Positions 9,329 to 24,324 of a DNA stretch of 64,000 nt are shown piece after piece (the stretch's first letter is position 1; every line of letters begins with the position of its first letter). The notes beneath the pieces are model-generated. The model saw nothing but the letters and a program-made list of their open reading frames with translations, had not been told where the DNA came from and ran no database searches. The translations under genes and the position numbers were made by a program. Origin of the DNA: Parabacteroides sp. PM6-13 (lineage in GTDB: Bacteria; Bacteroidota; Bacteroidia; Bacteroidales; Tannerellaceae); assembly GCF_029892605.1 (NCBI RefSeq), contig NZ_JARXWF010000008.1, positions 1 through 64,000 on the forward strand, written 5' to 3'.

Positions 9329-9402
9329 GGGGCATTAGCTCATCTGGCTAGAGCGTTAGACTGGCAGTCTAAAGGTGATCGGTTCGAGTCCGATATGCTC
9401 CA
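9329..9402 (+). tRNA. tRNA-Ala (anticodon GGC)
   Basis: Manual cloverleaf. Acceptor GGGGCAU/AUGCUCC, D-stem GCUC/GAGC, anticodon stem UUAGA/UCUAA with loop CUGGCAG, T-arm AUCGG-UUCGAGU-CCGAU. CCA not encoded. Confidence 0.85.
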
Positions 9403-9407
9403 CAAAT
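9391..9407. repeat. attL core (17 bp cgatatgctccacaaat) overlapping the tRNA-Ala 3' end
   Basis: Identical 17-mer recurs at 23669..23685 in direct orientation. Confidence 0.8.
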
Positions 9408-9566
9408 AAGGCTAAGTATTAGCGAGTTACAAAATTTACACCCAGATTTACACCCATAAATGTAGATTTGGGTGTTCTTTTTGAATAAAAATCCCCCGAA
9501 CCTCAACTGAAATCCGGGGGCAACCTGTCGTTTCAACAAAAATGTTGAAGCGTACAATGGCTTCTG

Positions 9567-9836
9567 TTAGTTCTCAATCTGCTTATCGATCTCTTCTTCT
9601 GCCCTATCAAAGAAGAAAACACCTATCAGTTCCGCTATATCAGTCCCGAACTCGCATAAGGTGTCGCTTATGTTGCCGAGCTTCTCGGTGCGTTTAATAT
9701 AAGGCTCTAACTCTTCTGTGTCCATAAGTGCATTTACTTTACTACGTGCTTCTTTTAACGCTATAATCACTTCGAGTAATCCGGTATGCACAGCTTCGAT
9801 CTTTACTTTGTCTATGTCTATGTCTATTGTTTTCAT
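9567..9836 (-). CDS. hypothetical small protein (element-borne)
   Basis: 89-aa ORF overlapping the next ORF by 4 nt in a compact operon. Confidence 0.4.
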   Translation of the reverse strand: MKTIDIDIDKVKIEAVHTGLLEVIIALKEARSKVNALMDTEELEPYIKRTEKLGNISDTLCEFGTDIAELIGVFFFDRAEEEIDKQIEN

Positions 9837-10069
9837 ATTGTTTCATCTATTTGCTTTTCAAATCTATACCCTGCTACCGACCCAATAAATTTAGCTACTT
9901 GGGCGATCCATTCATTTAGATCGGTGTGCATATCGCAGAGGTCTTCTTTACAATAGTCTATCTCTTGATCTTCTTGCAACTCCATAGCTTTGTTACGTGC
10001 TTTAATAATTAGCTCTTCCAACTCTAATAACCCCTCGTGTAAAAGGGTGTGTGAAATGTTTGTTTTCAT
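9833..10069 (-). CDS. hypothetical small protein (element-borne)
   Basis: 78-aa ORF with an overlapping stop/start. Confidence 0.4.
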   Translation of the reverse strand: MKTNISHTLLHEGLLELEELIIKARNKAMELQEDQEIDYCKEDLCDMHTDLNEWIAQVAKFIGSVAGYRFEKQIDETI

Positions 10070-10095
10070 ATCTATATCAATTAATTATTATTACT

Positions 10096-10278
10096 TTATT
10101 GTTCTTCGCTCAATATGCGGATGACCCACGCCAAGTCGCAAAGATTATCCATTTCTAACGGCAGGTTACCTGTTGCGTCCACCATTAGGTTGATTAAACC
10201 CTCTCTTATCTTCTTGACACTTCCTTTGTCTACGACTTCGGGATCAATCACTACTTTACCGTCAATTTCTTTTACCAT
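10096..10278 (-). CDS. hypothetical small protein
   Basis: 60-aa ORF. Confidence 0.3.
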   Translation of the reverse strand: MVKEIDGKVVIDPEVVDKGSVKKIREGLINLMVDATGNLPLEMDNLCDLAWVIRILSEEQ

Positions 10279-10426
10279 GATTATACGTTTTTAATGTTGT
10301 TTTTAATAGGGGGAAATCCCATCTTTAATTTATAAGCCATTTTAAGGCGATTTAAGACATTTTCTTTTCAAATCATACATCTATACCGTAAATCCGAAAT
10401 ATCACCGCAAATCGCCCCTAATAGCT

Positions 10427-10756
10427 TTAGATTGCTTGAATATTAAACCTCTTGAATGAGCGGAACGCTTGTTTCTCGGTGTCGAAGTAGGTAAAAAGTA
10501 GGTCGTTCTTTGCCCTCTGTGAGCCTTTCACCTCAACATTGATATACTTGTCAGACAAAGTGCCAAACGCCTGTCTAACCTCTCCGTTTACCTTCTGATA
10601 GTAGAACTTTACAATACCTGTTCTCATTGCTGCCGCCAGCTTGAAGTTCGCCCATGCTTTACGCAGGCAATCTGCGAAGGCTTCACCGGTTACTCGGAAT
10701 AAACGCCATGCCATTGCCATGATTCCTTTTAACTCGTTTCTTTTTGATGTACTCAT
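10427..10756 (-). CDS. hypothetical protein
   Basis: 109-aa ORF. Confidence 0.4.
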   Translation of the reverse strand: MSTSKRNELKGIMAMAWRLFRVTGEAFADCLRKAWANFKLAAAMRTGIVKFYYQKVNGEVRQAFGTLSDKYINVEVKGSQRAKNDLLFTYFDTEKQAFRSFKRFNIQAI

Positions 10757-10821
10757 AATCGTGTATATTAAAGTGTTTGTATTTAATTGACTCAGCCGAA
10801 AAGTCGGCTCAGTACTATGTA

Positions 10822-11115
10822 TTAATCCCCGAAGTAACGATACCGTGATCCTTCACCGTGATAGTAGTCGTATAGATCGACCTTTCTTGGTTGGGCGCAT
10901 AACGCTTTATATTCGTCAGATGCGTGCCACTTAGCTAATCTTTCTTTCTCTGCTTCGATAGCTGCCTGCTTAGCGTTGTAGATGATAGTTTCTTTCTCAA
11001 CCCACCAAGCTCTTGACAGGCACTCTCCGAAGTTCTTAGAATAACTTCCACGACGGTAGATGTTCCATGCCCGGATCATTACGGCTCTCTTGCTTATTTT
11101 TGATGTTGTTGTCAT
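10822..11115 (-). CDS. hypothetical protein
   Basis: 97-aa ORF. Confidence 0.4.
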   Translation of the reverse strand: MTTTSKISKRAVMIRAWNIYRRGSYSKNFGECLSRAWWVEKETIIYNAKQAAIEAEKERLAKWHASDEYKALCAQPRKVDLYDYYHGEGSRYRYFGD

Positions 11116-11140
11116 GTCTATACGTTTTAATGTTGATTTC

Positions 11141-11264
11141 TATACTGCAAATATACACTATAATGTATATCCAGCCAAACAAAAAGTGTTAAAAACATAC
11201 ATTATGATGAATTTATCTAAATATTATCTACATTATGATGAATTTTCAGTACATTTGCAGTATA
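11141..11264. promoter_or_regulatory. switch-like intergenic region: 12-bp inverted repeat (tatactgcaaat/atttgcagtata) flanking two 16-bp direct repeats (acattatgatgaattt)
   Basis: Direct repeats at 11199..11214 and 11230..11245. Inverted repeat arms at 11141..11152 and 11253..11264. Located between divergent transcription units upstream of an XRE regulator. Confidence 0.45.
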
Positions 11265-11281
11265 ACATTAAAATGTATAGT

Positions 11282-11524
11282 ATGAATTTAAGAGTAAAAG
11301 AAGTATGTAAAGAAAGAGGTATGACTATGGAGGCTTTAGCGAAGTTGTTAGATATTACTCCAAATACCCTCACTCGGAATATCAACGGCAACCCCACCAT
11401 TGAAACTCTCGGTAAGATCGCCTCTGCTTTGGAAGTCCCGGTAACGGATCTTTTCGAGCAACCGGCAAAAGATGTAGTGAACTGTCCGTATTGTGGTGGG
11501 AAGATAAAGATAGGGAAGGAATAA
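11282..11524 (+). CDS. XRE-family HTH transcriptional regulator with C-terminal zinc ribbon
   Basis: MNLRVKEVCKERGMTMEALAKLLDITPNTLTRNINGNPTIETLGKIASALEVPVTDLF is a Cro/C1-type HTH. CPYCGGKIK at the end. Start chosen at an internal Met of ORF 11060..11524. Confidence 0.6.
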   Translation: MNLRVKEVCKERGMTMEALAKLLDITPNTLTRNINGNPTIETLGKIASALEVPVTDLFEQPAKDVVNCPYCGGKIKIGKE

Positions 11525-11545
11525 TGATACATAAAGACAAATGAG

Positions 11546-11989
11546 ATGGTAGATCGAAATGAATTGCGAGTAGGGAATAGGTTAGCTTTAAGCCCGTCGG
11601 GCTTTTTTTGCGGCAATACAGTAATAGTTGATGAGATATTGAAAGATGGTATAAACTCATTAGAACTTGAATTTTACGACAGTAGCGAATTTTATAAATT
11701 CGAGAATTTATATCCTGTAGATATCTACCACTACGATTTGCGTGATTTTTGCGGATTTGATATTGTTGAATTTAACGAAGATGATTATGATGATGATGAA
11801 TATGTTCATTGTATACTAAAACATAGGGTTTCAGGGACATTAGTTCATGTTGTCCGTGACATATGGGAGGTGTATGTTCAAACTTCTGTTATCAATAAAT
11901 TATGGCGAAATGGAGCAATTAGGGTTAATAGTTTTCATCAATTAGAGAACGTTATTTTTGCTTTAACAGGTGTGGATATATCTGAATAA
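11546..11989 (+). CDS. hypothetical protein
   Basis: 147-aa ORF co-directional with the XRE regulator. Confidence 0.4.
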   Translation: MVDRNELRVGNRLALSPSGFFCGNTVIVDEILKDGINSLELEFYDSSEFYKFENLYPVDIYHYDLRDFCGFDIVEFNEDDYDDDEYVHCILKHRVSGTLVHVVRDIWEVYVQTSVINKLWRNGAIRVNSFHQLENVIFALTGVDISE

Positions 11990-12172
11990 TCAGTTAGACC
12001 CTCCAATATACTCTTCCAGAATCTTAGGCCGTCTAAATTGAGAAGTCTTTAGTGACATGTCGTTTCCACAGAATTGTGAAAGCGGGCCAAGGGTGTTAAA
12101 TTCTTTACGACCTATCAAAAAGAAAGGGCATCCCATCACAGAACACCCCTTAACGCTGAATCAAAGCACACA

Positions 12173-12364
12173 TCAATCGTCTACCTGTTCTGCCTTGTCG
12201 ATCACCTCAATGATAATATCTTCGCCGATATGGTCGCAAAACACCTGCTGTAATATCTTCCCTCTGCCATCCGTAGTGTTATCAATTACCGTGATAGTGT
12301 GCTGGTCTATCGGGTTGCCCTGAATGTGAGCAATGAGCCGCTTTACTTTCTCTTCACTTGCCAT
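12173..12364 (-). CDS. hypothetical small protein
   Basis: 63 aa, overlapping the upstream ORF. Confidence 0.3.
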   Translation of the reverse strand: MASEEKVKRLIAHIQGNPIDQHTITVIDNTTDGRGKILQQVFCDHIGEDIIIEVIDKAEQVDD

Positions 12365-12611
12365 CTTGCGCTGGTTTTATAACTTTCCATCCGAGTTTTT
12401 CAGACAGATCGTCAATTCTTGATTCTAATTCTTCATCCGTCAATCCTTCCAGTTCAAGAGCGGCAGCAATCTTCTTTGCCATACCTATTGGCATCGGTTT
12501 TAATCCGGTAAACGCTTCATACCACTCTGGAAACTCGCTCGTGTCCAAAACTCCAGTTGCCACAGATGACAACAATTTTGCTTTCTGTTCTTTTGATAGT
12601 TTAATCTTCAT
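12354..12611 (-). CDS. hypothetical small protein
   Basis: 85 aa, overlapping starts/stops in a minus-strand operon. Confidence 0.4.
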   Translation of the reverse strand: MKIKLSKEQKAKLLSSVATGVLDTSEFPEWYEAFTGLKPMPIGMAKKIAAALELEGLTDEELESRIDDLSEKLGWKVIKPAQDGK

Positions 12612-12936
12612 GATTCAAATTATTTAATGTTTGTATTCGCTCTGCCAGCCTATCCACAACCTCATCAGGAGCAGATAGTAACAGCTTCTCTAACTCTTTA
12701 TATTCGCAGGCAATCTGCGCATCAACACTCACAGACTGCTGCTTTGGCACAACGTACTGCATCAATTTCTCAAGTACCTGCACCCTGTCTTTAGGATCTA
12801 ACTCTTTCAAATCCTTTTCAAACTGCACTCGGTTACCATCAATAACCTGCTGAATCCAGCTTTTCAATTCCCCTGTTATCTTATTTGGCACTCCTTTAGG
12901 TCTGCCATTGGGGTTATTCGTCTGTCCTTTCTTCAT
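12601..12936 (-). CDS. hypothetical protein
   Basis: 111 aa. Confidence 0.4.
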   Translation of the reverse strand: MKKGQTNNPNGRPKGVPNKITGELKSWIQQVIDGNRVQFEKDLKELDPKDRVQVLEKLMQYVVPKQQSVSVDAQIACEYKELEKLLLSAPDEVVDRLAERIQTLNNLNHED

Positions 12937-13067
12937 CTTTGTAAATCTTTGTTGTTTTCAAAGCTTCCCGTGTACGCAAATAAGCAATTTTATTTTTCAA
13001 ATGATACCACGATCACCTAAGCGGAGAAAGTGGCTGAAATCTCTACCCTTCTCTCAAATATGAGATT

Positions 13068-13346
13068 CTAAACACCATTATCGTAGTACTGTTTTGCTTT
13101 TTCACGGTCTCGGCAACATTTAGCCCACTTTCCAAAGTCTTCGTTCCCAGGATAGCGAACACACTTTTTGTCCGGCTGTTTATATTCGTTGCCAATCTTA
13201 CGCTTAAAAACTTCGTAGTATATCACGCTCGGATCAGCTTCTAACGTACGACTGTATAGATACATCTCTGTTGCCGGGTTATAGCCTTCTTGTCTGAAGG
13301 TATCGCCGAACTTTGTAAATTCTTTGGGTAGTTCTCTAATATTCAT
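13068..13346 (-). CDS. hypothetical protein
   Basis: 92 aa, immediately downstream of the giant ORF. Confidence 0.4.
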   Translation of the reverse strand: MNIRELPKEFTKFGDTFRQEGYNPATEMYLYSRTLEADPSVIYYEVFKRKIGNEYKQPDKKCVRYPGNEDFGKWAKCCRDREKAKQYYDNGV

Positions 13347-13396
13347 CTGTCTTTATATTATGCCCCCGGATGAAGTTAATCACCCGGAGGTTGTTG

Positions 13397-16300
13397 TTAT
13401 AAACCTAATCCTCCGCCTTTCATCTTCACCTCTATTGACCCCTTTAATGAGTTGGCAGCACTATCGGTGTTTCCGGCAATAGCTTTTCCAGATTCCGCTA
13501 TGCCTTCTAACTGTGATAGCCGTTCGGTGTTAGCTACTATCGAGCGATTAGCCTCAGCTATCTCCTTTGACGTAGAATTGAGTTGTATCATATTCTGTTC
13601 GATCTTGCTGTTCAAATCCCGGATAGCAGTAAGCTCGCCGAAACTATTAGTCATAATATCTCGGTTCAACTGAAAACCATCCTTTACAGAATCTATTGCT
13701 GTCATGTCAATCCCAAACCCTTTTCCACCAAATATTTGCTGCATTATTCCATTCATCTCAGCATTGATCTTTTCTGAATCGACCTTTAGACCTTCTTTAA
13801 GTATATCTCGAATGCTTTCAGCAGCATTTGCGCCACGCTCCAGAGCAACCCTTCCTGCTCCCATCTGCCCGGCTAATAGATCAATACTTTGTTGATTGGC
13901 TTTCCCTAATGCTCCGGCAAGTGAGTTATCAGACGTTGATGCCTCATTTTTGAGTCTATCTATTTCCCATCCATTTGCTTTCGCCAACTCATCCCAATCT
14001 TTGGCTATCGACATCCAGCTATCAACCACAGTAGGAAGGCTATCGAAAATACCAGAGGTTATAGAAAGAAGTTCTTCTTGTACCGCCTTAGGATCGCCTA
14101 ATGAAAATGCGTCTCTAATCTTTGGTTTATATTGCTCAAGGTACTCTCCTAAGATCATTTCCTGTAGAAGGGCTTTCCCGAGTGCATCAATCACCTTTAG
14201 TCCTGAATCCTCAAATAAATCCCAGGCGTCTGACCCATTACGAACAGCGTCAAATATTATATCAGTCAAATCAGAAGCTATCCCGCCAAAGGTTGATTCG
14301 ATGTGATCATCAAGGACTTTCATCGCTTCATCGTAAGCCTCTTTCTGATCAATAGCAAGTGCAAGCTGTGTGCGTAATTCTTTGGATATTTCTTTGTGGG
14401 TTTCCAGGAACAGCCTTGCTGCTTCAACATCAAACTCACCATTCAAATCACCTCCCCATATTTCAGGAGCAAAATCAAACAAGGTGGTGAATTTATCTTT
14501 TGAGCCTTGCTTATACCATACGTGTTTTGCGGTCTGAATAAGACTTCCTTGCAGTACTGTCATTTCACGCTTCATGGCGTCAATCAAAACTTCATCTGCA
14601 TAGGTTCTGCTCCAATTGGCCAAACTAAAGCCCTGATAGCTATCCATCCCGTACGGCTTTATATTGAGTTTTTCATTTACAAAATCATTGTAATCACCAA
14701 TGGTCTTTTTATAGCTATCGTAAGCCTTGATCGCCTGTTCAATACCACGCTTTCCGAAAAATGAAGAGTATTCCTCTTCGAGATAGTTTCGCTCTGACAA
14801 AAGAAGATTGAACCGATGCTGCCAGTCGTATTGTTCATTCTGCATTCTCCGGATTCGCTCTTCCTCTTCTATCAATCCGTTAAATACCGATGATCCTATA
14901 CCGGCTACCGCTCCGGCAACAGCACCCCAAATACCGCCTGATTTAGCACCTGAGATGGTCTTCTCTAATATGTTCCCCCAATCTTTTAAAAGGCTTGTAA
15001 AATCTGATAGACTTTGATCTCCGGTTGCATCTGCCAGTTGTCCAATCATATCAGATAACTGAGACACTCCCTGCACTGCCTCCAATGCTCCATCATAGAT
15101 GTAGTTCAATCCTTCCTGCCGGGATGTTTCCGCATTATCTTCAAACAGTTTCTTTTTTGCCTTGTCTGCCTCCGTAAAGGCTTTCTCTGATAGTTTGGCA
15201 GATTCCTTTAGTTTCTGCAAACCTTTAACAATGCCGGAGAACGGGTAATTAGTTCTGCTGTCTAACTCATTTTGTTTATCGATCAGTGCATTGTAAATGT
15301 CTTTTATTTCGTCAAATGGTAAGCCTTTGAGTAGGTCGCTTGGATTGTCAATAAGTCTTTTCGTTTCATCGATTATGCTTTTGAGCTGTTTACGGCTCAT
15401 ATTAGCAGCATTGGAGAATAGCTTCGTGAAAGTGTCAGAGGCCTTACTCAATTCGTTGAACTCAGAGCTGTTGATATCTTTAAGCCCTTTCTCATACTGC
15501 TTCTTCGCTACTACTAATGCCCGGTTTATTTCCTCTGCGTTTTCTTCTGTACGCTGGCTATTCAAGAAGGAAACAGTATCGTTGTACTCTTCTTCCAGCT
15601 TCTCACGCTGCTTAGCAAAGTCCTGGTATTTGTCGAGAACAGAATCAAGCAGATCCTTTTCACTTTTCGCCCGGTCTGCGGTGTTGGCTTGAAACAGACC
15701 GGCAAGGAGATTTTGCTTTTCTTCCGGAAGGTCTGCAATGACATTTACAGAGGAAGTGAATGTCATTCCCTTATCTTTCCAATCAGGGTTAGCGGCTTCC
15801 CATGTTTTACGCTCAAGTTCCTGCTGTTGCTTGATAAGAGCGGCTCCACGCTTCATGATCTCCAATTCCCGTTTGTCATAATCGAGATTGATTTGAGCAA
15901 GAGTTTTATCTGTACCTTCTTCCATGAGGTTGATACGTTGCTGCTGTAATTCGTGTTCAGCCTCTCGCTCTTCAACAGCAAGCTTCTTGCTCATTTCCTC
16001 AATCTCCCGGAGACGATCAGCAGTTTCAGATTTTAGCCGGTTGGTATCTAAAGCAGACTTTTTAGCGTCTTTATCCTGCCCGGTCATGGTTTCCAGCTTT
16101 TTTTCTGCCTCTTGCAGGGCTTTAACCTCATCCTCAATAGCTTTCGCAAAATCAAATTGTTCTCCCGGTTTTAATTCGATAGGGGCTATTCCTTTTCTGA
16201 GATTCTCAATATTTTTTTTCAGGTTATCGATTTCCCCCTTGGTATCAGCAAGCTGTTTGTCGAAATCCACGAAAGGAGCTACTTCCTTTTGATCCTCTTT

Positions 16301-18148
16301 CTTTGAGAGTTTCCCGTAGATTGATTCCAGGTCACTTATTTCATTATCGAGTATCCCTTTTGATTTGCGGATATTCACAACAAGCAGATCGATAGGGTTT
16401 GTTTGGTATGAAGAAGCACCTCCAAACATTCCTTGTGATACATAAACGGTCTTGTTGAATTTATCAATAGCATCCTGTACCTCTTTGCTAAACTCACTTC
16501 CGGAGCTTAATGATTCTTTCAGGGAATCAAGTAAAAGTGTTCCTTGTGCTTCTCCAAACTCTTTATTGAACGATTTGCGGATCTTATCAATGTTCTTCCC
16601 CCATTGCTCGGTGTAATTATCCACAGCAGATTGTGTGCCTTTTTCAATGGCTCTGTCTTTGGCAGATTGGATAGCGGCTTCTGATATGGCTTTATAAGCT
16701 CCTTCTATGTCTTTGAGGGTGCGTATCTCTTCATTTAAGCCATCAAGGTAGTTGCCGTATTTATTGATGATATTGTCCTTTGCTTTTTGATATGCCTCCG
16801 TCCCTTCCTTAGCGTTTTTGAGCCTCCCGAAAAGAATATCAATATTTACAGACTCTTCTTCTGTACTCTTGTTGAAGTCTTTCATTGTCTCCGCAAGCCT
16901 CTTTTGCGATTTCTCTGCCTCGGTTTGATATGTGCTCAATTTGTAGATGCCATAACCAAGACCTACAACTGCTGCTGTAAGCACAACATAAGGATTGGTA
17001 ACTAATAATGCTGCTGAGGCTTTTAATGATTTGGATAGGCTGGCCTGCGCAAGAGTAAACATCTTTGTTCGAGCGGCGGCAATGGCTTCTGCATTGGAAA
17101 GTTGAATACTGGCAGCGGCGGCAAGATGCTTCTCGACTACGGCCTGACGCATGATCTTTGTATTGAGGGACTGCAAAGCGGAGATCGAAATAAGAAGAGC
17201 TTTGTAGCTGCCATAGACAACAACTAATTCCGCTATTGTCTTGCCGATTATCTCGTAGTTCTCAACCATGAGAGTAGCACTCTCTATCGCCTTACCGATA
17301 ACACCTTCCGAGCTTTGACCAATCTCATTAAACATCACCTGAATGTTATCCTTAAGTGCTTCGATCTGCCCTGTAATGGCTTTAGATTGGTTCTCCATCA
17401 ATCCGCCATACATACCACCGGAAGATGTCATGTTCTTAAAGGCCTGTTCAACCTCTTTGAATCCAACCTTCCCGGCAGAGACAAGATCATTTACTTGACC
17501 TTCTGCAACTCCTAATACATTTGCAAGCTCTTTATAGATGGGGATACCACGCCCGGCAAACTGGCGTATATCCATGAGATAAGCCCTGCCTTGCATACGG
17601 AGTGTACCGTACAAATAAACGATGTCTCCGATAGACTGACCTGTTCCGGCTGCCACGTCGCCAAGCATTGTCATCTCCTGAATCACGCTATCCGCTTGCG
17701 ATCCGTATGCTATAAGCTGCTTTGCTGCTTCGGCTGCTGATTGCAAACCGAAAGGAGTACGTGCGGCAAAGTCTGTTAAGTCTCCAATGAGAACTTTAGC
17801 TTTATCACCACTCTTTAGCATAGTACCAAAGGCGATTTCTAATTGCTGGAACTCGCCACGAACATTTACCACTTCTTTTGCAAAAGCTGTGAGGGCTGCT
17901 GTACCACCAATACCGGCTAATGCTTTTTTGAAGTTACTATTAATGGATGCGCCAGCTTTAGAAGCTTCTTCCGCTAAACGGTTAAACTTCCCTTCAAGGG
18001 ATTGCAATTGCTTATCAAGCTTATTGAATGCTTTCGGATCGGCGGCCTTATCCATGCCTGAAAGTTTTGTTTTCAGGTCATCTATTTCTTTTTTTAGCTT
18101 CTTCAATGCCTCAAAATCGGCGCCTACACGAAAATATAATCCACTCAT
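13397..18148 (-). CDS. phage tail tape-measure-domain protein (1583 aa, long coiled-coil)
   Basis: N-terminal region (EFQQLEIAFGTML...LTDFAARTPFG...LIAYG) matches the conserved tape-measure domain of TP901-like phages. The remainder is an extended Lys/Glu-rich coiled coil with two hydrophobic segments. Confidence 0.75.
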   Translation of the reverse strand: MSGLYFRVGADFEALKKLKKEIDDLKTKLSGMDKAADPKAFNKLDKQLQSLEGKFNRLAEEASKAGASINSNFKKALAGIGGTAALTAFAKEVVNVRGEFQQLEIAFGTMLKSGDKAKVLIGDLTDFAARTPFGLQSAAEAAKQLIAYGSQADSVIQEMTMLGDVAAGTGQSIGDIVYLYGTLRMQGRAYLMDIRQFAGRGIPIYKELANVLGVAEGQVNDLVSAGKVGFKEVEQAFKNMTSSGGMYGGLMENQSKAITGQIEALKDNIQVMFNEIGQSSEGVIGKAIESATLMVENYEIIGKTIAELVVVYGSYKALLISISALQSLNTKIMRQAVVEKHLAAAASIQLSNAEAIAAARTKMFTLAQASLSKSLKASAALLVTNPYVVLTAAVVGLGYGIYKLSTYQTEAEKSQKRLAETMKDFNKSTEEESVNIDILFGRLKNAKEGTEAYQKAKDNIINKYGNYLDGLNEEIRTLKDIEGAYKAISEAAIQSAKDRAIEKGTQSAVDNYTEQWGKNIDKIRKSFNKEFGEAQGTLLLDSLKESLSSGSEFSKEVQDAIDKFNKTVYVSQGMFGGASSYQTNPIDLLVVNIRKSKGILDNEISDLESIYGKLSKKEDQKEVAPFVDFDKQLADTKGEIDNLKKNIENLRKGIAPIELKPGEQFDFAKAIEDEVKALQEAEKKLETMTGQDKDAKKSALDTNRLKSETADRLREIEEMSKKLAVEEREAEHELQQQRINLMEEGTDKTLAQINLDYDKRELEIMKRGAALIKQQQELERKTWEAANPDWKDKGMTFTSSVNVIADLPEEKQNLLAGLFQANTADRAKSEKDLLDSVLDKYQDFAKQREKLEEEYNDTVSFLNSQRTEENAEEINRALVVAKKQYEKGLKDINSSEFNELSKASDTFTKLFSNAANMSRKQLKSIIDETKRLIDNPSDLLKGLPFDEIKDIYNALIDKQNELDSRTNYPFSGIVKGLQKLKESAKLSEKAFTEADKAKKKLFEDNAETSRQEGLNYIYDGALEAVQGVSQLSDMIGQLADATGDQSLSDFTSLLKDWGNILEKTISGAKSGGIWGAVAGAVAGIGSSVFNGLIEEEERIRRMQNEQYDWQHRFNLLLSERNYLEEEYSSFFGKRGIEQAIKAYDSYKKTIGDYNDFVNEKLNIKPYGMDSYQGFSLANWSRTYADEVLIDAMKREMTVLQGSLIQTAKHVWYKQGSKDKFTTLFDFAPEIWGGDLNGEFDVEAARLFLETHKEISKELRTQLALAIDQKEAYDEAMKVLDDHIESTFGGIASDLTDIIFDAVRNGSDAWDLFEDSGLKVIDALGKALLQEMILGEYLEQYKPKIRDAFSLGDPKAVQEELLSITSGIFDSLPTVVDSWMSIAKDWDELAKANGWEIDRLKNEASTSDNSLAGALGKANQQSIDLLAGQMGAGRVALERGANAAESIRDILKEGLKVDSEKINAEMNGIMQQIFGGKGFGIDMTAIDSVKDGFQLNRDIMTNSFGELTAIRDLNSKIEQNMIQLNSTSKEIAEANRSIVANTERLSQLEGIAESGKAIAGNTDSAANSLKGSIEVKMKGGGLGL

Positions 18149-18170
18149 GATTCTTCTTATTTATTTGTTA

Positions 18171-18431
18171 TTACTTTTTTATTCCATCCCCGAACAGTTC
18201 TTTGCCCGGGTTCGCCTCTTTCCAGTGATTGATCCCGTCTAACCCCGCATCGCTGGAAAAGTAATCTTCCGTTGACTTGTAGCCCATGAGTTGGAATACA
18301 TCGTCGGTAGAGAACAGCATCTCACCGGTAACTTTATCTTTGGTCGCTCTAATCGTTTTGCCCTTCGCCACTAAAAAGAGATAGTGGCGCAGCTTATCGT
18401 CTTCTTTATACTCTATTAAAATTGGTTTCAT
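18171..18431 (-). CDS. hypothetical small protein
   Basis: 86 aa, directly upstream of the TMP gene. Confidence 0.4.
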   Translation of the reverse strand: MKPILIEYKEDDKLRHYLFLVAKGKTIRATKDKVTGEMLFSTDDVFQLMGYKSTEDYFSSDAGLDGINHWKEANPGKELFGDGIKK

Positions 18432-18450
18432 ATCTTTATCTGTTTGATTG

Positions 18451-18693
18451 TTAGTTTAAACTCCCACTCTCATTTAGCATATCCAAAACCACTTGCTTAT
18501 TGATTTGGCGATCATGTATAGCATCATTTTCGTTTAAAATTGTTTTTGCCAAATCAAATGCATCATTCGTCCGACCTTCGGTTATGGCCTGCATGATCTT
18601 GTAGGCGTTTGATACGTTCCGGCAGATCTCTCCGAATGTCACCTCTAAGGGTATATCCACTAATCTGATTTTTATTTCTTCTTCTGTTTTCAT
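18451..18693 (-). CDS. hypothetical small protein
   Basis: 80 aa with a 4-nt overlap onto the upstream ORF. Confidence 0.4.
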   Translation of the reverse strand: MKTEEEIKIRLVDIPLEVTFGEICRNVSNAYKIMQAITEGRTNDAFDLAKTILNENDAIHDRQINKQVVLDMLNESGSLN

Positions 18694-19193
18694 TTTGTGT
18701 CCTTTTTTATAGTGTGCAAACTGTGCAATTCTTTCAAGAAATCATCATAGCATTTCACCACAGCGTAATGCCCTCCGGCAGCTATGATTTGTTCCTGCAC
18801 TTGCTTCTGAATGTCGCTTTGTTTATCTCGCCCTATCTTGATCTCGAAATTGTAAACTTTGCCATTGTGGGTTACTTGTACATCGGCAATCCCTTTAGTG
18901 CTGCCTGATTTACGCCACATCTTTAGGCGGGCATCATATTGACCTTGTGAGTTCTGCCGTTGGTAAAAAGCTCCGTTAATCTTCGACCATATAGACAGGC
19001 ATTCGGTTAGTCCGTTCGCTGTATCGTCTCTAAATTTCTTTACAAACCGGCAGTTCTCAGGAATGGAACTATTACGATACTTAAACTCGAAATAGTCCTT
19101 CTCCAGTCGCTTAACTGATTCCGGCTTCTGATACCGGGCCACTACTTTACGAGGCTTCTTTTCTTCTCTTGGGATAAAGTCTTGCATATTCAT
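18690..19193 (-). CDS. VRR-NUC domain nuclease (PD-(D/E)xK)
   Basis: GIADVQV...FEIKIGRDKQSDIQKQ fits the VRR-NUC GxPD / ExK / D..S..Q pattern. 167 aa. Confidence 0.5.
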   Translation of the reverse strand: MNMQDFIPREEKKPRKVVARYQKPESVKRLEKDYFEFKYRNSSIPENCRFVKKFRDDTANGLTECLSIWSKINGAFYQRQNSQGQYDARLKMWRKSGSTKGIADVQVTHNGKVYNFEIKIGRDKQSDIQKQVQEQIIAAGGHYAVVKCYDDFLKELHSLHTIKKDTK

Positions 19194-20116
19194 ATAGCTT
19201 GTCGTTTACAGGTGAGTCCATACTGTTTGCAATACCAAAAGAATGTTCTAATGGATTTACGAGCGCAATGCTTCAGGCATCGGTCATATTGCTCATCGCA
19301 CTGCCAGTCCTCATACTTATCAGACTGCCTACTAACAATATGAAAGTAAGCTCTTCCACTCTCGCCAAACTCATTGGCCAGCGATTGACCAATAGCGTAC
19401 CAATCATCATACCGATCTGTCATGTCTATGCCTCGGACTGAAATGTCAGATACCAGCTTGTCTACCCAATACTCTACATCGTTATCCGGATTCACCTCTC
19501 TTGTCTTATATTCCTTCGGCTCGATCATATCGGTAAACACACCAGCCTCTTCATCCATATGAGGAAATTCATCGTATGACGCCCCACGTAGACGGGCAAC
19601 ATCTCTGCATTGTTTATCGACAACCAAACCACGCACTCTCAATACCTCAGCTATTGCCTGAAAATGCTCTTTATGCTTCTCCGGGTTAGCTATCTGTATA
19701 ATCATATACATTCCTTTCCCCGATGCAGATAAAGCGCCATAGCAATAGCCTGGGATATTAGGAAGGTTATGCTTAAGGCGATCCCAGTTCTTTATACTTG
19801 GGTTATCCTGTGCGTCCAGGTCGATGCAGATAAAGCCGGAATGTTTGATTAGGCCTTTATTACTTCGTTTAGAAAATACGCCTGAAACAGTAATGCAGGG
19901 TAGGGATGCCTTTATGCGCCTACGTTCATCTTTATCGGTGCAGCCTCTTACCACTTCAACCTGTCTTCTGTATTCTCCAGACAATAGCCAATCGAATAAG
20001 CTGACGGTCTTTGTAGGAGTGGCATCAAAATAATTTCTAAAAAAAGAGATAGGAACGGTCTCGAACTTTGTCAAAAGGTCGAGCCTCCATATTCTATCTA
20101 AATTGATTATGCTCAT
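19190..20116 (-). CDS. replication/primase-like protein (BT4734-like N-terminal domain + PriCT-like C-terminal domain)
   Basis: LPCITVSGVFSKRSNKGLIKHSGFICIDLD resembles the VirE/BT4734 N-domain. The C-terminus DDWYAIGQSLANEFGESGRAYFHIVS resembles a primase C-terminal domain. Start set at an internal Met; the ORF track starts at 20191. Confidence 0.6.
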   Translation of the reverse strand: MSIINLDRIWRLDLLTKFETVPISFFRNYFDATPTKTVSLFDWLLSGEYRRQVEVVRGCTDKDERRRIKASLPCITVSGVFSKRSNKGLIKHSGFICIDLDAQDNPSIKNWDRLKHNLPNIPGYCYGALSASGKGMYMIIQIANPEKHKEHFQAIAEVLRVRGLVVDKQCRDVARLRGASYDEFPHMDEEAGVFTDMIEPKEYKTREVNPDNDVEYWVDKLVSDISVRGIDMTDRYDDWYAIGQSLANEFGESGRAYFHIVSRQSDKYEDWQCDEQYDRCLKHCARKSIRTFFWYCKQYGLTCKRQAI

Positions 20117-20151
20117 GATAATGCTTATGATAATGATAATGTATATGTATA
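20114..20151. repeat. iteron-like ATGATAATG tandem repeats at the 5' end of the primase-like gene
   Basis: catgataatgcttatgataatgataatgtatatgtata, followed by the ttgaatac x2 direct repeat (20161..20180). Confidence 0.35.
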
Positions 20152-20205
20152 GGGTAGCCGTTGTATTCATTTGAATACTGTTGAATACCAATGTATACCG
20201 TAGTA

Positions 20206-20484
20206 TTATTTATTGCTGTTCCTCCCATCCCAATACTCTTGTATTTTCTTCCTATTGTCCTCTCGTTTCTCTTCATACTTCTTGTTGTCTTCATCTATAA
20301 ACGCTTGGAGCAAGTGAAAAACCACCGAAAGTTTCTCCGTGAAATCAGAAGGGAGTTCACTGCGCCATTGGTAGGCCATAATAGCCATAAATATCTTGCC
20401 ACGTTCGGAATCTGTTAGTATGGAGAGAATTGTCTCAAATTGCTCACGAACGAGTAAGGGTGGTTGTTTAGGTTTATTTGCCAT
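20206..20484 (-). CDS. hypothetical protein
   Basis: 92-aa ORF. Confidence 0.4.
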   Translation of the reverse strand: MANKPKQPPLLVREQFETILSILTDSERGKIFMAIMAYQWRSELPSDFTEKLSVVFHLLQAFIDEDNKKYEEKREDNRKKIQEYWDGRNSNK

Positions 20485-20485
20485 C

Positions 20486-20767
20486 TTATCGCCCTCCTTT
20501 AACCTTAAAGTACCACACTTTATTTTCTTTACTTATTGGGCAAATTCCCTGATGCGTCCGCTCGATCAGTCCGTCATCTTCCAACTGCCGGATAAGTCTT
20601 GTACAGTTAGGCCGGGTTATGCCTGTCGCCTCTGCTGCGTGGTAAGTAGTAGAATGATTGTCAATAAAGAAGGCAAATAAGGCTTGCTTTTGCAAACGGA
20701 TTCGTTTATCTTTGTGGTGATCTTCTTGCCCTTGCTGCCCGGCGGGGCTTTCTTTTTTTAGTTTCAT
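20486..20767 (-). CDS. HTH DNA-binding protein (winged-helix/MarR-like)
   Basis: FFIDNHSTTYHAAEATGITRPNCTRLIRQLEDDGLIER is an HTH. 93 aa. Confidence 0.5.
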   Translation of the reverse strand: MKLKKESPAGQQGQEDHHKDKRIRLQKQALFAFFIDNHSTTYHAAEATGITRPNCTRLIRQLEDDGLIERTHQGICPISKENKVWYFKVKGGR

Positions 20768-21066
20768 GCCCTGCGCCCTCCTTCTTTACGTCCAGCTAAC
20801 TCAAGTGCTAGCTCGGCATCAACTACAATCTTGCGCCCTATCTGCTTAATTGCTTTGTCTATTTTCCCGCTTGCCTTGATCCGGCTTGCGGTAGGAATAG
20901 AACAGTTAAATAGTCGGGCAATTCCAGATACACCATAGACATATTGTTTCTCTTGTGCTGTTTGAGCATTCACGTTCTGTCTAAAGTTTCCATGCTCCTG
21001 CAAGAAAAGAAACTCTTCACCAGTCATTTGCCAAATTGGTTTGGCTCTTAATTCTACAATATTCAT
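20764..21066 (-). CDS. excisionase-like HTH protein (MerR/HTH_17-like)
   Basis: VYGVSGIARLFNCSIPTASRIKASGKIDKAI is a phage excisionase-type HTH. 100 aa, overlapping the upstream ORF. Confidence 0.5.
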   Translation of the reverse strand: MNIVELRAKPIWQMTGEEFLFLQEHGNFRQNVNAQTAQEKQYVYGVSGIARLFNCSIPTASRIKASGKIDKAIKQIGRKIVVDAELALELAGRKEGGRRA

Positions 21067-21274
21067 AATCTACTTTTTTATTATCGTTAATTACTTGGTG
21101 CGTCCACCTGTTAGTAATCGATTACGATAGCAAATGTATAATTCCGAGTATCAGTAGAAAAGGAAGAATTGTGGGAATAAATATAAAAACAAAAAAGGCT
21201 AACTATCAATGTGTTAACCTTGCGTTTTTTGTGATTTGGGAAAGATTGTTTGGCGGTTTGGGAATATTTATGAA

Positions 21275-22237
21275 TTATTTTGATTCCTCGTAGTATTTGG
21301 TGATTGTGTTTTTAAAGGTTTTTGGGAAGCTATCTTCTAATAGTTTAATCTTTTTCACATTATTACTGTCTTTATTTACTTGTGGAAACACCCCTGAATC
21401 TATTAGTGGCATTACCGTTTTTGCGATAATATCCGCCGTTACACCTTTCTTTATTTTTAGTTTATCAAGAGTATATCCATGTTCTAAAAATTGCTTTATG
21501 GTTTCTTTGTTGTCATCACAAATAAATTGTAACTCAGTAATATGCTTTGATATATCCCTTGGCTCTTTCTTTGACTTAGGTAGAACCCTGTATTTGTCAT
21601 ATGATCCGAAGTTTTCTTCATAGTCACTATTTTCTTTTAAGATGTCTACTATGTCGATATCGAAATGAGCATAAATTGATGAAATGTCATAAAGAATTTG
21701 TTCTATGTCATTTGTTAAAAAAGTAACGTGATATCCGTTTTTTTCTAATGTTTCCAAACTGAGATAGGAGCAATATAATAGAGCATCTAACTGCTTTGCA
21801 AATAATTTAGCATATAAGATGCGATTGTGATGAGATTCTATTTTTAGCAGTTTCTCTGTTAGGTTTTTCTCCAATGCTAACCCTACTTTATAATTGAGAC
21901 CCTCGACAATTTTCCCCTCTATGTAGTAGAATCTTGATTTAGCATCCTCTATTTTCTTACGGAATGCGCTGGGCTTTTTTTTGCTTACGTCTGGCATTCG
22001 ATGTTTGGCTTCGTCCGAGTCAAGATATTTAAGATGTTCGTCCATGTTGAGAAGCTTCCACAATACGTCTGGATTTTTCATAAAAAAAACATAGTGCTGT
22101 ATTTGCTTATCCAGTAGCTTTACAATCGTGCGATAAAGGAAGCCATAAAATCCCTTTTGGTTTTTATAACGATCATAATGAAAGGCGTCATCGATTAGAA
22201 CATTTATTTCATCAAATACATATTCTAAATATTTCAT
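21275..22237 (-). CDS. AT-rich hypothetical protein (element cargo gene next to integrase)
   Basis: 320 aa, Lys/Ile/Tyr-rich with no recognisable motif. Clearly lower GC than its neighbours. Overlaps the integrase stop by 4 nt. Confidence 0.5.
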   Translation of the reverse strand: MKYLEYVFDEINVLIDDAFHYDRYKNQKGFYGFLYRTIVKLLDKQIQHYVFFMKNPDVLWKLLNMDEHLKYLDSDEAKHRMPDVSKKKPSAFRKKIEDAKSRFYYIEGKIVEGLNYKVGLALEKNLTEKLLKIESHHNRILYAKLFAKQLDALLYCSYLSLETLEKNGYHVTFLTNDIEQILYDISSIYAHFDIDIVDILKENSDYEENFGSYDKYRVLPKSKKEPRDISKHITELQFICDDNKETIKQFLEHGYTLDKLKIKKGVTADIIAKTVMPLIDSGVFPQVNKDSNNVKKIKLLEDSFPKTFKNTITKYYEESK

Positions 22238-23565
22238 ATTCCATCAAATTTACTCATTGCACTTGCTTTTATCTCATCCGCTATGTCTATGTACGGCTTC
22301 ATTGCTTTGTAGTCGCTATGCCCTGTCCACTTCATTACAACTTGTGCCGGGATACCTAATGACAACGCATTACAGATAAATGTTCGTCGTCCGCAATGCG
22401 TACCGATTAAAGCGTACTTGGGTGTAACCTCATCTATACGTTCATTTCCTTTATAGTATGTTTCCCGGATTGGTTCGTTTAGTTCTGCCAGCTCACAAAG
22501 CTCTTTTAGGAACTCATTCATCTTTTGGTTACTGATAACCGGCAGCACTTTACTATTAGGTAAATGCACGTCTTTGTACTTCTCCAGTATTGCCCGGCTA
22601 TGACTATTCAGCTCAATGATGAGGCTATCGGCTGTTTTTACGGTTGTTATTTCGATATGGTCCTCTTTCACATCACTACGTTTGAGGTTGTACACATCGG
22701 AATACCGTAGGCCGGTGAAGCATTGGAACAGGAATACATCCCGGACACGTTCAAGGTATTGTTTACCTTCCGGTATCTTATATTCTCTAAGCTGGGTAAG
22801 TTCTTTCCATGTGAGGAAGATTATCTTCTTTTTAGTCGTTTTCAATTTCGGCTTGAACGCCTCGAAAGAAGTGTTTTCGCAATGTCCTTTAGAAACTGCC
22901 CAGCGAAGGAACCATTTTAATAGATTGATCTGTTTTTCTATGGTGCTATTCCTCATCCCCACACTATAAAGGTAAGACACATATTCTCGAAGTACATTTT
23001 CATTCAACCTATCAAAGGTTAATCCAGGATCAAAATCTTTTATGTGTCCTTTTACTACATTGAGTTTTTTTATAGTTCCTAATGCCCAGTTGTTCTGCTC
23101 CCCACATTCAGCCATAAAGAGGTCAAAGTACAGATGAATGTTTTTTTGTTCTTGTCTATCATCGCCATTTTTCTTCCCAAAAGCATCTTTTAATTGATCC
23201 GGTGTCGGCGTCGTATCCTGTACCTCAAACTCCTTAAAGACAGCCTCTATTTTAGAATATAGATCCGATAGATCCGAGTTGATTTCGGACGCACTTTGTT
23301 TAAGTTTATTTGTACATCCTTTTTTTACTCGCTGTTTATCCAAATCCCATTTTGGCGCATCAATTCGGTAGCCGGTGGTAAACTCTATTCGGTTGCCACA
23401 ATAGACTACACGCATACGGATAGGCACATTCTCTGTAATAGGAATACCGTTTTTCTTTCGGCTTTCAAGTGAAAAGACTATATTTCGCTTTATATTCATG
23501 GGTGCAAAAGTGGGTGTAAAATTAAATCCACACCCAAAAGTACACCCATTTTTTGAGATATGCAA
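22234..23565 (-). CDS. int: site-specific tyrosine integrase
   Basis: 443 aa. N-terminal SAM-like and core-binding region plus a C-terminal catalytic domain (HCGRRTF, RYSDVYNLK) typical of Bacteroides phage/CTn integrases. Adjacent to attR. Confidence 0.9.
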   Translation of the reverse strand: MHISKNGCTFGCGFNFTPTFAPMNIKRNIVFSLESRKKNGIPITENVPIRMRVVYCGNRIEFTTGYRIDAPKWDLDKQRVKKGCTNKLKQSASEINSDLSDLYSKIEAVFKEFEVQDTTPTPDQLKDAFGKKNGDDRQEQKNIHLYFDLFMAECGEQNNWALGTIKKLNVVKGHIKDFDPGLTFDRLNENVLREYVSYLYSVGMRNSTIEKQINLLKWFLRWAVSKGHCENTSFEAFKPKLKTTKKKIIFLTWKELTQLREYKIPEGKQYLERVRDVFLFQCFTGLRYSDVYNLKRSDVKEDHIEITTVKTADSLIIELNSHSRAILEKYKDVHLPNSKVLPVISNQKMNEFLKELCELAELNEPIRETYYKGNERIDEVTPKYALIGTHCGRRTFICNALSLGIPAQVVMKWTGHSDYKAMKPYIDIADEIKASAMSKFDGI

Positions 23566-23668
23566 CGATATTCTAATATATTTTATTTATCTTTGCGCTT
23601 CATAAAAGGCTGGTTAATAGCGTGATTTTAAGATGATATGATATTTTGCAATATAAAAGGTTAAAGAG

Positions 23669-23685
23669 CGATATGCTCCACAAAT
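23669..23685. repeat. attR core (cgatatgctccacaaat)
   Basis: Perfect 17-bp direct repeat of 9391..9407. Confidence 0.8.
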
Positions 23686-23715
23686 CATCAAAAAAGGAGG
23701 CTTTCTTTCGAAAGT

Positions 23716-23766
23716 CTCCTTTTTTGATTACCTCTTCCTGCGGATAAACAGCACTGTCAGGGCGAC
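23716..23766. repeat. 51-bp direct repeat copy 1 (ctccttttttgattacctcttcctgcggataaacagcactgtcagggcgac)
   Basis: 50/51 identical to 24274..24324. Begins with the descending arm of a terminator-like hairpin (aaaaaaggaggctttctttcgaaagtctcctttttt). Confidence 0.8.
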
Positions 23767-23919
23767 AAATAAGGCTCACTCCCAAAAGCAAAACCCCACA
23801 ATAGCATTTGTAAAAACAAAAAACATATTGTATATTTGTACTTAATATGACCTCCCACGCTTCCCGTCAGAACAGCGCACCCGGGGAGGTCTTCGAGTTT
23901 CTATATCATTCCTACTACT

Positions 23920-24270
23920 ATGAAATACATTAAGCAACCTCTCTCCATTCAGCAGCAAATAGACAAACTAAAATCCAGAGGATTGATCATTGATAATGAA
24001 GAAATTGCAGCTGGCTATCTATCGAATATTAGCTATTATCGCTTAAGAGCTTACACCTATCCATTCCAAAACAATACAGATGAAGAAAAAGATCACCACT
24101 TCACTCGAAGCGATATACATTTCAGAGACATCCTTGACATAATCAGCCCTCAGAGTGATTTCAAGAAAAATCTTATTAGCATTATTCAAGACGGTGGGAA
24201 TTTATTAAAAATCAAAGATATGGGATTCCCTGAAAACTGGGCACATCTTGATGTGTGGAAAGAAATATAA
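23920..24270 (+). pseudogene. Abi_2 (AbiD/AbiF-like) abortive-infection protein, N-terminal fragment only
   Basis: IQQQIDKLKSRGLIIDNEEIAAGYLSNISYYRLRAYTYPF matches the Abi_2 family N-terminus. The ORF stops at 116 aa against about 300 aa for the family. Confidence 0.5.
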
Positions 24271-24273
24271 AGC

Positions 24274-24324
24274 CTCCTTTTTTAATTACCTCTTCCTGCG
24301 GATAAACAGCACTGTCAGGGCGAC
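24274..24324. repeat. 51-bp direct repeat copy 2
   Basis: See 23716..23766. Starts 3 nt after the Abi fragment stop codon. Confidence 0.8.

Follow-up and report, generated by a model that had tools for sequence, protein, structure and literature searches.

A tRNA-Ala-integrated element of Parabacteroides with its own tape measure protein: a candidate phage satellite

What kind of mobile element encodes a phage tape measure protein (TMP) but no capsid? The question is raised by an element integrated at a tRNA-Ala gene in a 64-kb stretch of DNA (“the window”), which was assigned in our analysis to Parabacteroides sp. PFB2-12 (Tannerellaceae; assembly GCA_029893125.1, contig JARXXD010000011.1). 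Twenty credible open reading frames (ORFs) were found across the element and compared with Pfam and PHROGs. An earlier note, made from the letters of this DNA, had seen no capsid, terminase, portal or baseplate genes, and indeed none of the 20 ORFs, the small ones included, matched a capsid, portal, large terminase (TerL), tail tube, baseplate or lysis family. The largest ORFs left unassigned had 320 and 147 aa. A PADLOC search with ten ORFs, including the 320-aa cargo ORF, gave no defence system. We consider the element to be an integrated satellite resembling the phage-inducible chromosomal islands (PICIs), from a previously undescribed Bacteroidota family and supplying its own TMP, with a probability of roughly 0.6. 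Its packaging would depend on a helper phage.

The ends of the element were delimited by an exact repeat. The 17-mer CGATATGCTCCACAAAT occurred exactly twice in the window, at 9391-9407 and 23669-23685, and none of 100 shuffled controls gave two or more matches with two mismatches allowed. The spacing of the repeats, 14,278 bp, is the length of the element. The core of the attachment (att) site comprises the last ~13 nt of the tRNA and 4 nt downstream. The exact 9-mer TTTACACCC had three copies in the window (9435 and 9447 on the plus strand, 23512 on the minus strand), each at most 170 nt from the att cores, and a one-mismatch copy at 23500 adjoined the inverted attR-side copy. These repeats resemble integrase arm-type sites.

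9329-9403, plus strand: intact tRNA-Ala(GGC), the integration target (ARAGORN; Rfam RF00005, 61.8 bits)
9391-9407, no strand: attL core, 17 bp (exact repeat)
9435-9455, plus strand: two tandem TTTACACCC arm-type repeats beside attL
23500-23520, minus strand: arm-type repeats TTTGCACCC and TTTACACCC beside attR
23669-23685, no strand: attR core, 17 bp, copying the tRNA 3' end in part (exact repeat; repeat family D6)

With perfect 17-bp repeats, a tRNA recognized by ARAGORN and Rfam, arm-type repeats at both ends and intact ORFs, the complete tRNA-Ala integration event proposed in the earlier note is real, and the element looks recombination-competent. Its G + C content was ~0.41, and that of the core genes on its left side 0.46-0.57. 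Because the low G + C content runs past attR to ~31500, the right border is not definable by composition alone. No near-identical DNA was present in GenBank phages.

The middle of the element holds the TMP and the genes around it. Two sibling elements are needed to describe them: L200, from strain PF5-9, and L274, from the same genome as the window.

12767-18701, minus strand: accessory TMP cassette, with the 80-aa ORF, the 86-aa ORF, the TMP, the 92-aa ORF and the N-terminal half of the DUF5681 gene (blastn breakpoints against L200)
13068-13346, minus strand: 92-aa ORF downstream of the TMP, within the cassette (50% identical in L274, absent from L200)
13397-18148, minus strand: TMP, 1583 aa, intact (TMP_3 4e-23; phrog_9959 6e-216)
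18171-18431, minus strand: 86-aa ORF immediately upstream of the TMP (one homolog)
18451-18693, minus strand: 80-aa orphan ORF in the cassette (no match)

Judged by its domain matches, the TMP is genuine and full-length, the TMP_3 domain scoring 82.5 bits against a curated cutoff of 41. Its best relative was the 1585-aa TMP of the full temperate phage L083/L002 (44% identity, 100% coverage). The similarity was mosaic: compared with the phage TMP, residues 1-300 were 59-85% and residues 400-800 45-77% identical, and residues 900-1400 were 55-82% identical to the TMP of another small element, L084. The TMP of each small element was closest to a different phage TMP. Together, these patterns point to repeated TMP exchange with phages. 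Where the context was read, the closest TMP relatives among 5.8 billion proteins lay in full phages. The ~5.9 kb cassette had a counterpart of only 0.5 kb in L200; by this comparison the TMP block is accessory, being present or absent between near-identical backbones. The giant protein had been described before as an orphan with a tape-measure domain; the domain stands, but the gene is part of a present/absent cassette and not an orphan.

The small genes of the cassette were less informative. The 86-aa ORF had a single homolog (76% identity) among the 5.8 billion proteins, which precedes the TMP-like gene of L274 and showed a weak Bro-N match (E 0.012); a fold search was uninformative. A jackhmmer search with the orphans of the element (80, 86, 92, 63, 147, 320 and 78 aa) against ~22,000 ORFs of the fetched loci gave no matches. 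We considered the 80- and 86-aa ORFs as a frameshifted tail assembly chaperone pair and saw no support for this: the ORFs are separate, a search for similarity to phage genes preceding TMPs gave none, and the weak Bro-N match of the homolog is the sole hint.

A clue to packaging comes from a gene for a DUF5681-like protein, a candidate small terminase (TerS).

12601-12936, minus strand: DUF5681-like protein, 111 aa, TerS candidate (Pfam DUF5681 2.4e-5)
12173-12611, minus strand: 85-aa and 63-aa ORFs, after and overlapping the DUF5681 gene

The search for DUF5681 homologs gave 376 proteins, and many of those at 60-75% identity bore a precomputed PF18932 assignment. A DUF5681-like ORF could be placed on 46 IMG/VR contigs, and on 35 of the 46 an ORF of at least 250 aa lay directly downstream, often with overlapping stop and start codons. 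These downstream ORFs comprised 33 non-redundant proteins, at least 27 of which matched large-terminase Pfam families (Terminase_6N in 15, Terminase_3 in 12, TerL_ATPase in one and the T7 terminase RNaseH-like domain in one). In the annotated complete phage MW202710, DUF5681 was likewise found upstream of the large terminase. In viral contigs the gene usually sits, by these neighbourhoods, in the classical small-terminase position, and this position suggests that the DUF5681 protein of the window may act as a TerS. A small terminase without a large one is the packaging logic of PICIs, including the Staphylococcus aureus pathogenicity islands (SaPIs), and the presence of DUF5681 together with the absence of a large terminase would follow this logic. 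The literature searched assigned no function to DUF5681, and a PDB sequence search with the protein returned only noise. DUF5681 genes also marked smaller islands without a TMP, L192 (~11 kb) and L193-L196 (7.1 kb). The 85-aa ORF was 95% identical in L274 and 88% in L200, and L192 has a copy too.

Is the element one of a kind? The search for relatives of the TMP covered IMG/VR, metagenomes and one genome per species. The matches were nearly all in full phages, where a ~360-aa head protein lay upstream and tail proteins of >600 aa lay downstream, and a minority were in small elements. Together with relatives found through other genes, these form a family of small elements of 7 to 17.6 kb, integrated at tRNA or transfer-messenger RNA (tmRNA) genes in Bacteroidota.

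L107: Parabacteroides sp. PF5-9, 14,748 bp between 43-nt repeats
L084: Tannerella metagenome-assembled genome, 14,319 bp, 23-nt repeats at 1278-1300 and 15597-15619 at a tmRNA gene
L097: Pedobacter, 17,575 bp at tRNA-Arg, with a DnaD-like initiator, DnaB, two DUF5681 and a TMP, no capsid or TerL
L001: 15 kb, an IMG/VR “virus”
L101: probable member of the small-element family
L200: strain PF5-9, 10,296 bp at tRNA-Leu(taa), without TMP, integrase 27% identical, different cargo, found via its DUF5681 homolog
L274: same genome as the window, contig JARXXD010000009.1, ~4900 to beyond 20261, with a 516-aa integrase, AAA_25, RusA, the 86-aa homolog and a 1354-aa TMP-like protein
L193-L196: metagenome contigs, 7.1 kb (L193 7,147 bp) at tRNA-Val, with an integrase, a cargo ORF, HTH_17, a Phage_CRI initiator (filamentous-phage-type), DUF5681 and a few tiny ORFs

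The TMP-bearing small elements had in common an integrase, an excisionase (Xis)-like helix-turn-helix (HTH) protein, a replication module (primase or DnaB), a TMP, in most cases DUF5681, an XRE regulator and a WYL_2 protein. L200 shared with the window 2,071 bp at 96.7% nucleotide identity (18702-20772 of the window), spanning a winged HTH (wHTH) gene, DUF6291, the primase and a nuclease. Further blocks were 77-91% identical (the DUF5681 C-terminus, the 85-aa ORF, XRE, the 97-aa ORF, WYL_2 and the 89-aa ORF). The 96.7%-identical block lies at a different att site and with a different integrase, indicating that the backbone moved recently between genomes.

The co-resident sibling L274 had a cassette homologous to that of the window, with the 86-aa ORF, the TMP-like giant protein and the 92-aa ORF. 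Its 1354-aa protein matched phrog_9959 over the C-terminal part (1e-27), without the TMP_3 core, and was 42% identical to the window TMP over the N-terminal 83 aa and 43% over the C-terminal 336 aa. The WYL_2, 97-aa and 85-aa genes were 95-97% identical to those of the window; the integrase and replication genes differed. A 436-bp region common to the window and L274 accounts for the break of the strain's Logan assembly within the element.

Some minor observations concern these siblings. The XRE of L274 was only 61% identical to the window XRE and may have a different immunity specificity. In L084, the 23-nt repeat covers the 5' end of the tmRNA gene and not the usual 3' end. L193-L196 could be either minimal satellites or rolling-circle replicons in integrated form. 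The length of 14,278 bp is about a quarter of that of the L002 contig (57,176 bp) and of phage BS-TP2 (57,555 bp), a relation that the 10.3- and 17.6-kb siblings do not fit and that is probably a coincidence. A conserved size of ~14.3-14.7 kb, considered as a packaging quantum, was weakened as an idea by siblings of 7.1, 10.3 and 17.6 kb.

How would such an island sense and use a helper? The left end of the element carries a divergent regulatory switch, which links it to full phages.

9493-9520, minus strand: terminator-like hairpin and T-run after the last gene of the 97aa-WYL_2 operon (12-bp stem, 7 GC pairs)
9567-10278, minus strand: three small ORFs of 89, 78 and 60 aa (no family match)
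10427-10756, minus strand: WYL_2 protein, Sm-like SH3 barrel (Pfam 6e-21; phrog_1086 4e-25)
10822-11115, minus strand: 97-aa protein, first gene of the operon divergent from XRE (clusters with WYL_2 proteins, phmmer)
11116-11284, no strand: divergent control region with operator-like repeats (inverted 11141-11156/11249-11264, I18; direct ACATTATGATGAATTT at 11198 and 11231)
11204-11524, plus strand: XRE/Cro-CI-type HTH regulator, putative repressor (HTH_3 1e-11; phrog_8, phrog_3)
11546-11989, plus strand: 147-aa orphan, co-transcribed with XRE (no match)

The start codon of the XRE gene is likely at 11285. A sigma-70 promoter scan carries no meaning for Bacteroidota promoters. The 97-aa protein was 95% identical in L274, 81% in L200 and 71% in L107; the 89-aa ORF was 93% identical in both L200 and L274, and the 60-aa ORF 51% in L107. 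WYL_2 belongs to the conserved core of the family and occurs in full phages too, with 58% identity in phage L083 and 52% in Riemerella phages. The XRE/WYL_2 pair was found in L083 and the full trio of XRE, 96-97-aa protein and WYL_2 in L197. L083/L002, a full temperate phage, has genes for a head protein and a TMP, genes of connector size, large tail genes and the XRE and WYL_2 homologs; the TMP of L083 lies between the head/connector genes and the tail genes. The temperate siphophages of the L083/L197/L002 type (Tannerellaceae, uncultured) therefore resemble our element in their homologous XRE/97aa/WYL_2 switch and in a TMP that is 39-44% identical overall, up to 85% locally, and of nearly the same length (1585 vs 1583 aa). 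They differ in being full phages, with a major head protein, connectors, tail genes and large tail-tip proteins. We regard them as candidates for the helper lineage, not as the same kind of element. Among isolates, the L083 head protein matched only Bacteroides phage BS-TP2. The Hankyphage was considered as helper and dismissed: its TMP matched at 34% and only over the N-terminal third, and it has no relation to the head protein of L083.

The opposite end of the element holds the integration and replication genes and a cargo slot.

18690-19193, minus strand: PD-(D/E)xK/VRR-NUC-like nuclease, 167 aa (phrog_93 endonuclease 3e-7)
19190-20191, minus strand: BT4734-like_N and PriCT_2 primase-like replication protein (Pfam 4e-11 and 4e-13; phrog_15962 DNA primase 9e-31)
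20206-20767, minus strand: DUF6291 (92 aa) and MarR-like wHTH (93 aa) (Pfam)
20764-21066, minus strand: DUF3853 HTH in excisionase/AlpA-like position (Pfam 2e-37)
21275-22237, minus strand: AT-rich 320-aa cargo ORF in a variable slot adjoining the integrase (no family match)
22234-23565, minus strand: tyrosine integrase with Arm-DNA-bind_5, SAM_5 and the Phage_integrase catalytic domain (Pfam, PHROGs)

Here the domain matches bore out the integrase, the excisionase-like HTH and the BT4734/PriCT primase-like gene named in the earlier note. Two of its other calls were correct in part. The VRR-NUC nuclease has a PHROG endonuclease match and a D...ExK motif read by eye, but no Pfam match, to VRR-NUC or otherwise; and from the plural “XRE regulators” one XRE (HTH_3) was retained, the other regulator being the MarR-like wHTH. 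The nuclease was 99% identical in L200 and 52% in L084, and a PDB sequence search with it gave only noise. DUF6291 and the wHTH were 100% and 95% identical in L200. DUF6291-containing proteins of the siblings matched DnaD-like/replication-initiator PHROGs, and the two genes probably serve replication initiation or origin binding. The DUF3853 slot was occupied by an excisionase-type HTH_17 in L200, L274, L192 and L193. The 320-aa cargo ORF had a G + C content of ~0.32, no Pfam, PHROG or PADLOC match and, apart from itself, only 33 remote relatives in a set of 1.84 billion representative proteins. In every sibling the slot held a different, unrelated orphan of 237-400 aa, so that by this comparison it is a hypervariable cargo slot.

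From these genes the following life cycle can be proposed. The XRE protein would keep the divergent 97aa-WYL_2 operon off. Upon infection by, or induction of, a helper siphophage of the L083/L197 type, with its homologous switch and its TMP of the same length, the island would be derepressed, and the integrase and the Xis-like DUF3853 protein would excise it. The primase, DUF6291 and the wHTH would then replicate the island, and the TerS-like DUF5681 protein would steer the large terminase of the helper to island DNA. In tails built by the helper, the island TMP would take the place of the helper's own, giving chimeric virions, as the PLEs (elements that resemble phage-inducible chromosomal islands) do with phage ICP1. 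The benefit of an own TMP is likely an escape from TMP-directed interference or from DNA-entry exclusion.

Several observations weigh against this satellite reading. It was drawn from sequence, and no result shows the element excised, replicated or encapsidated. The checks for an empty attB and for a circular attP, suggested in the earlier note, were run and neither site was found. An empty attB would read tRNA-Ala(GGC) followed directly by CATCAAAAAAGGAGGCTTTC; exact-protein look-ups with the flanking DUF4286, the TMP and DUF6291 returned only the genome itself, its sequencing run and strain PF5-9, and the attP junction was absent from IMG/VR. Both checks came back empty because a single genome and a single sequencing run represent the species in the collections. 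Outside the element, the 64-kb window contained no phage structural or helper genes. The TMP is dispensable for the backbone, as TMP-less siblings exist, and no tail assembly chaperone was recognized next to it, unlike in PLEs. For DUF5681, the window protein scored 25.3 bits against a curated Pfam cutoff of 27.5, and the TerS role derives from gene position in distant homologs of 27-46% identity. Its AlphaFold model was a plain helical bundle, with which a fold search gave no terminase match, and in Bacteroides phage BF1-TP2 a DUF5681 homolog is located in the lysogeny region. Finally, the BT4734/PriCT primase and DUF3853 are likewise typical of conjugative and mobilizable elements of the Bacteroidales.

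This last point leads to the question whether the element is moved by conjugation instead. NBU1 and NBU2 (non-replicating Bacteroides units) are Bacteroidales elements of 10-12 kb that integrate at tRNA 3' ends, encode a tyrosine integrase, a primase-like gene and a Mob relaxase, carry an origin of transfer (oriT), and are transferred by conjugation. An NBU-type integrative mobilizable element, conjugated via a co-resident conjugative transposon, would have acquired the TMP cassette as phage DNA, with a role unrelated to transfer or none. Our element shares with NBU1/NBU2 the tRNA 3'-end integration in Bacteroidales, the tyrosine integrase and the primase-like gene; its Bacteroidota-type integrase, its DUF3853/HTH_17 Xis-like gene and its primase, which conjugative and mobilizable elements of this order often have, the occurrence of the backbone without a TMP and the lack of packaging evidence all suit such a view. 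We nevertheless regard it as unlikely, since no relaxase/Mob, coupling or other transfer family was found in any ORF (Pfam, PHROGs), and the other recognizable genes and the cargo are of phage type (the TMP, the XRE/WYL_2 phage switch, the TerS-like DUF5681, and the PHROG matches of the primase, DUF6291 and WYL_2). Moreover, intact TMP ORFs of 1281-1583 aa were retained in at least six independent small elements.

The homology of XRE, WYL_2 and TMP to genes of full phages could also mean that the element is a decayed L083-type temperate phage, with its head and tail genes deleted and the TMP kept by chance, and prophage decay is common. This seems very unlikely to us: the att repeats are perfect, there are no truncated ORFs or pseudogenes, and the gene order is unlike that of a phage, where head and tail genes enclose the TMP. 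Divergent elements at different tRNA/tmRNA sites, whose TMPs are 28-52% identical, repeat this compact architecture, and the replication block, 96.7% identical at another att site in another genome, indicates a recent move as a unit. A further explanation concerns the cassette only, which might be an anti-phage weapon, the foreign TMP (by itself or helped by its 80-, 86- and 92-aa partners) poisoning the tail assembly of infecting phages and protecting the host population. The cassette is accessory and flanked by orphan small ORFs, and the TMP is close to a phage TMP in its N-terminal two-thirds and different in the C-terminal third, a pattern that fits what a dominant-negative protein would need. 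Interference genes are common in satellites, and TMP-directed interference is known from Rta in PLE11 (PMC12987554) and from the Tai systems (PMC11364771). PADLOC found no match, however, and a length of 1583 vs 1585 aa with termini conserved between two co-resident siblings fits a working tape measure better. We consider a weapon quite unlikely; it would not exclude a satellite, with which it is compatible.

If the element is a satellite, to which known kind does it belong? The earlier note had compared its architecture with PICIs. What remains of this is a discrete element, not a full prophage, with phage-derived satellite-like genes; its genes are not ordered as in a PICI. Shared with PICIs/SaPIs are a size of ~10-15 kb, site-specific integration, an integrase, an Xis-like gene, a repressor, a primase-type module and the absence of structural genes. 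In a PICI the integrase adjoins a divergent repressor/activator pair, with xis and pri-rep after it. Here the integrase is adjoined by the cargo ORF and DUF3853, and the divergent XRE/97aa regulator pair (10822-11524) lies ~11 kb away at the opposite end. A homolog was not detected for Stl/Str, for Ppi, for CpmAB or for the PICI Pri-Rep, and the PICIs as originally defined have no TMP. The capsid, portal, protease, head-tail connectors and terminase of capsid-forming PICIs (cf-PICIs) were not detected in the 20 ORFs. For the P4-like satellites, the Psu/Sid/Delta families of capsid size and transactivation and the alpha primase-helicase family remained unmatched, the primase here being of the BT4734/PriCT type. 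A complete tailed prophage (Caudoviricetes) would have a major capsid, a portal and a large terminase, none of which was among the 20 ORFs.

Close parallels are satellites with a TMP. The statement in the earlier note that a satellite with a tape measure would be unusual is dated, as a TMP is known from PLEs, with putative tmp genes in some PLE-like elements and some cf-PICIs (PMC12987554), and TMPs also from the Extracellular Prophage-Inducing Particles (EPIPs) (PMC12822802). In the PLEs of Vibrio cholerae, genes for a tail assembly chaperone and a baseplate hub accompany that of the TMP, which is selectively built into helper tails, giving chimeric tails (PMC12987554). Like a PLE, our element is a small integrated island without capsid genes and with an own TMP divergent from the helper-type TMP. 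There is no sequence relationship, and the chaperone and baseplate hub of PLEs were not recognized among the 80-, 86- and 92-aa neighbours. PLEs are specific to ICP1 and have a large serine recombinase, whereas here we found a tyrosine integrase at a tRNA, another replication module and a TerS-like DUF5681 gene. The host here is a member of the Bacteroidota, the putative helper is a temperate siphophage and not a lytic myophage, and the TMP is demonstrably a present/absent cassette. EPIPs, from Mycolicibacterium aichiense, are reported as satellites with a TMP and a small terminase that depend on a helper prophage (PMC12822802). Our element resembles them in the TMP and in its TerS candidate; their head-to-tail adaptor, stopper, scaffold, major capsid and serine integrase were all absent, and the hosts are unrelated. 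The element is thus unrelated in sequence and layout to PICIs, P4, PLEs, cf-PICIs and EPIPs, and fits only the general definition of a satellite, an integrated or episomal element with an incomplete virion gene set and phage-derived genes for hijacking: it has no capsid, portal or TerL, but a TMP and a DUF5681 gene of TerS position. In the literature searched we found no description of satellites of Bacteroidales or Bacteroidota. Satellite-encoded TMPs were unknown until very recently, and in that literature none is reported for Bacteroidota.

Such elements matter because the Bacteroidota dominate gut microbiomes, where transduction-type gene flow is poorly understood. Virus-prediction pipelines file them as proviruses, and L001 has an entry among the IMG/VR viral genomes. 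Compared with the known TMP-bearing satellites, the added value is a TMP that is visibly a swappable cassette, with natural pairs with and without it: near-identical backbones with and without a TMP, and two TMP-type siblings in one genome, form a natural experiment. Why satellites carry their own tape measure, a question raised for PLEs (Nature 2026), becomes testable in a second, unrelated system, as does a functional assignment of DUF5681 as small terminase. Tentatively, and with more doubt than belief, we extend the reading to a class of satellites not described before, integrated at tRNA or tmRNA genes throughout the phylum (7 to 18 kb, with a TerS-like DUF5681 gene and an XRE/WYL_2 switch at the core), whose TMP cassette would be a swappable module recombining with helper TMP genes, the satellite TMP being built into helper tails for delivery into cells that exclude the helper TMP. 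If true, satellite particles would reach cells that exclude or interfere with the helper TMP, for example lysogens of the helper, the very cells that a satellite has to get to.

The DNA to the right of attR belongs to a different unit. From 23686 to 31500 the G + C content is low (0.36-0.41), and a second, unrelated island abuts the element.

23687-23728: hairpin terminator
23920-24270: truncated Abi_2 ORF
Within the second island: 235-aa ORF
25086-26576: Band_7/zinc-ribbon protein
26616-27241: HicA/HicB
Within the second island: Y1_Tnp-like fragment
27645-29306: DDE_Tnp_1 insertion sequence

A third att copy with up to two mismatches was not present in the window. Insertions that took place earlier at this tRNA hot spot may account for the second island. 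A 62-nt direct repeat (94% identical, 23711-23772 and 24269-24330) flanks the truncated Abi_2 ORF, and the Logan assembly breaks there. A repeat of ~60 nt with the palindrome CCGGCAGTT(GAA)AACTGCCGG was located at 26470-26529, 27486-27548 (inverted) and 32007-32066, with partial copies at 27220-27235 and 29301-29332. Two inverted ~60-nt copies flank HicAB and the Y1-transposase-like ORF; they could be ends of the IS200/IS605 type (insertion sequence families) or a REP/RAYT-like system (repetitive extragenic palindromes and their associated tyrosine transposase) that mobilises the toxin-antitoxin pair.

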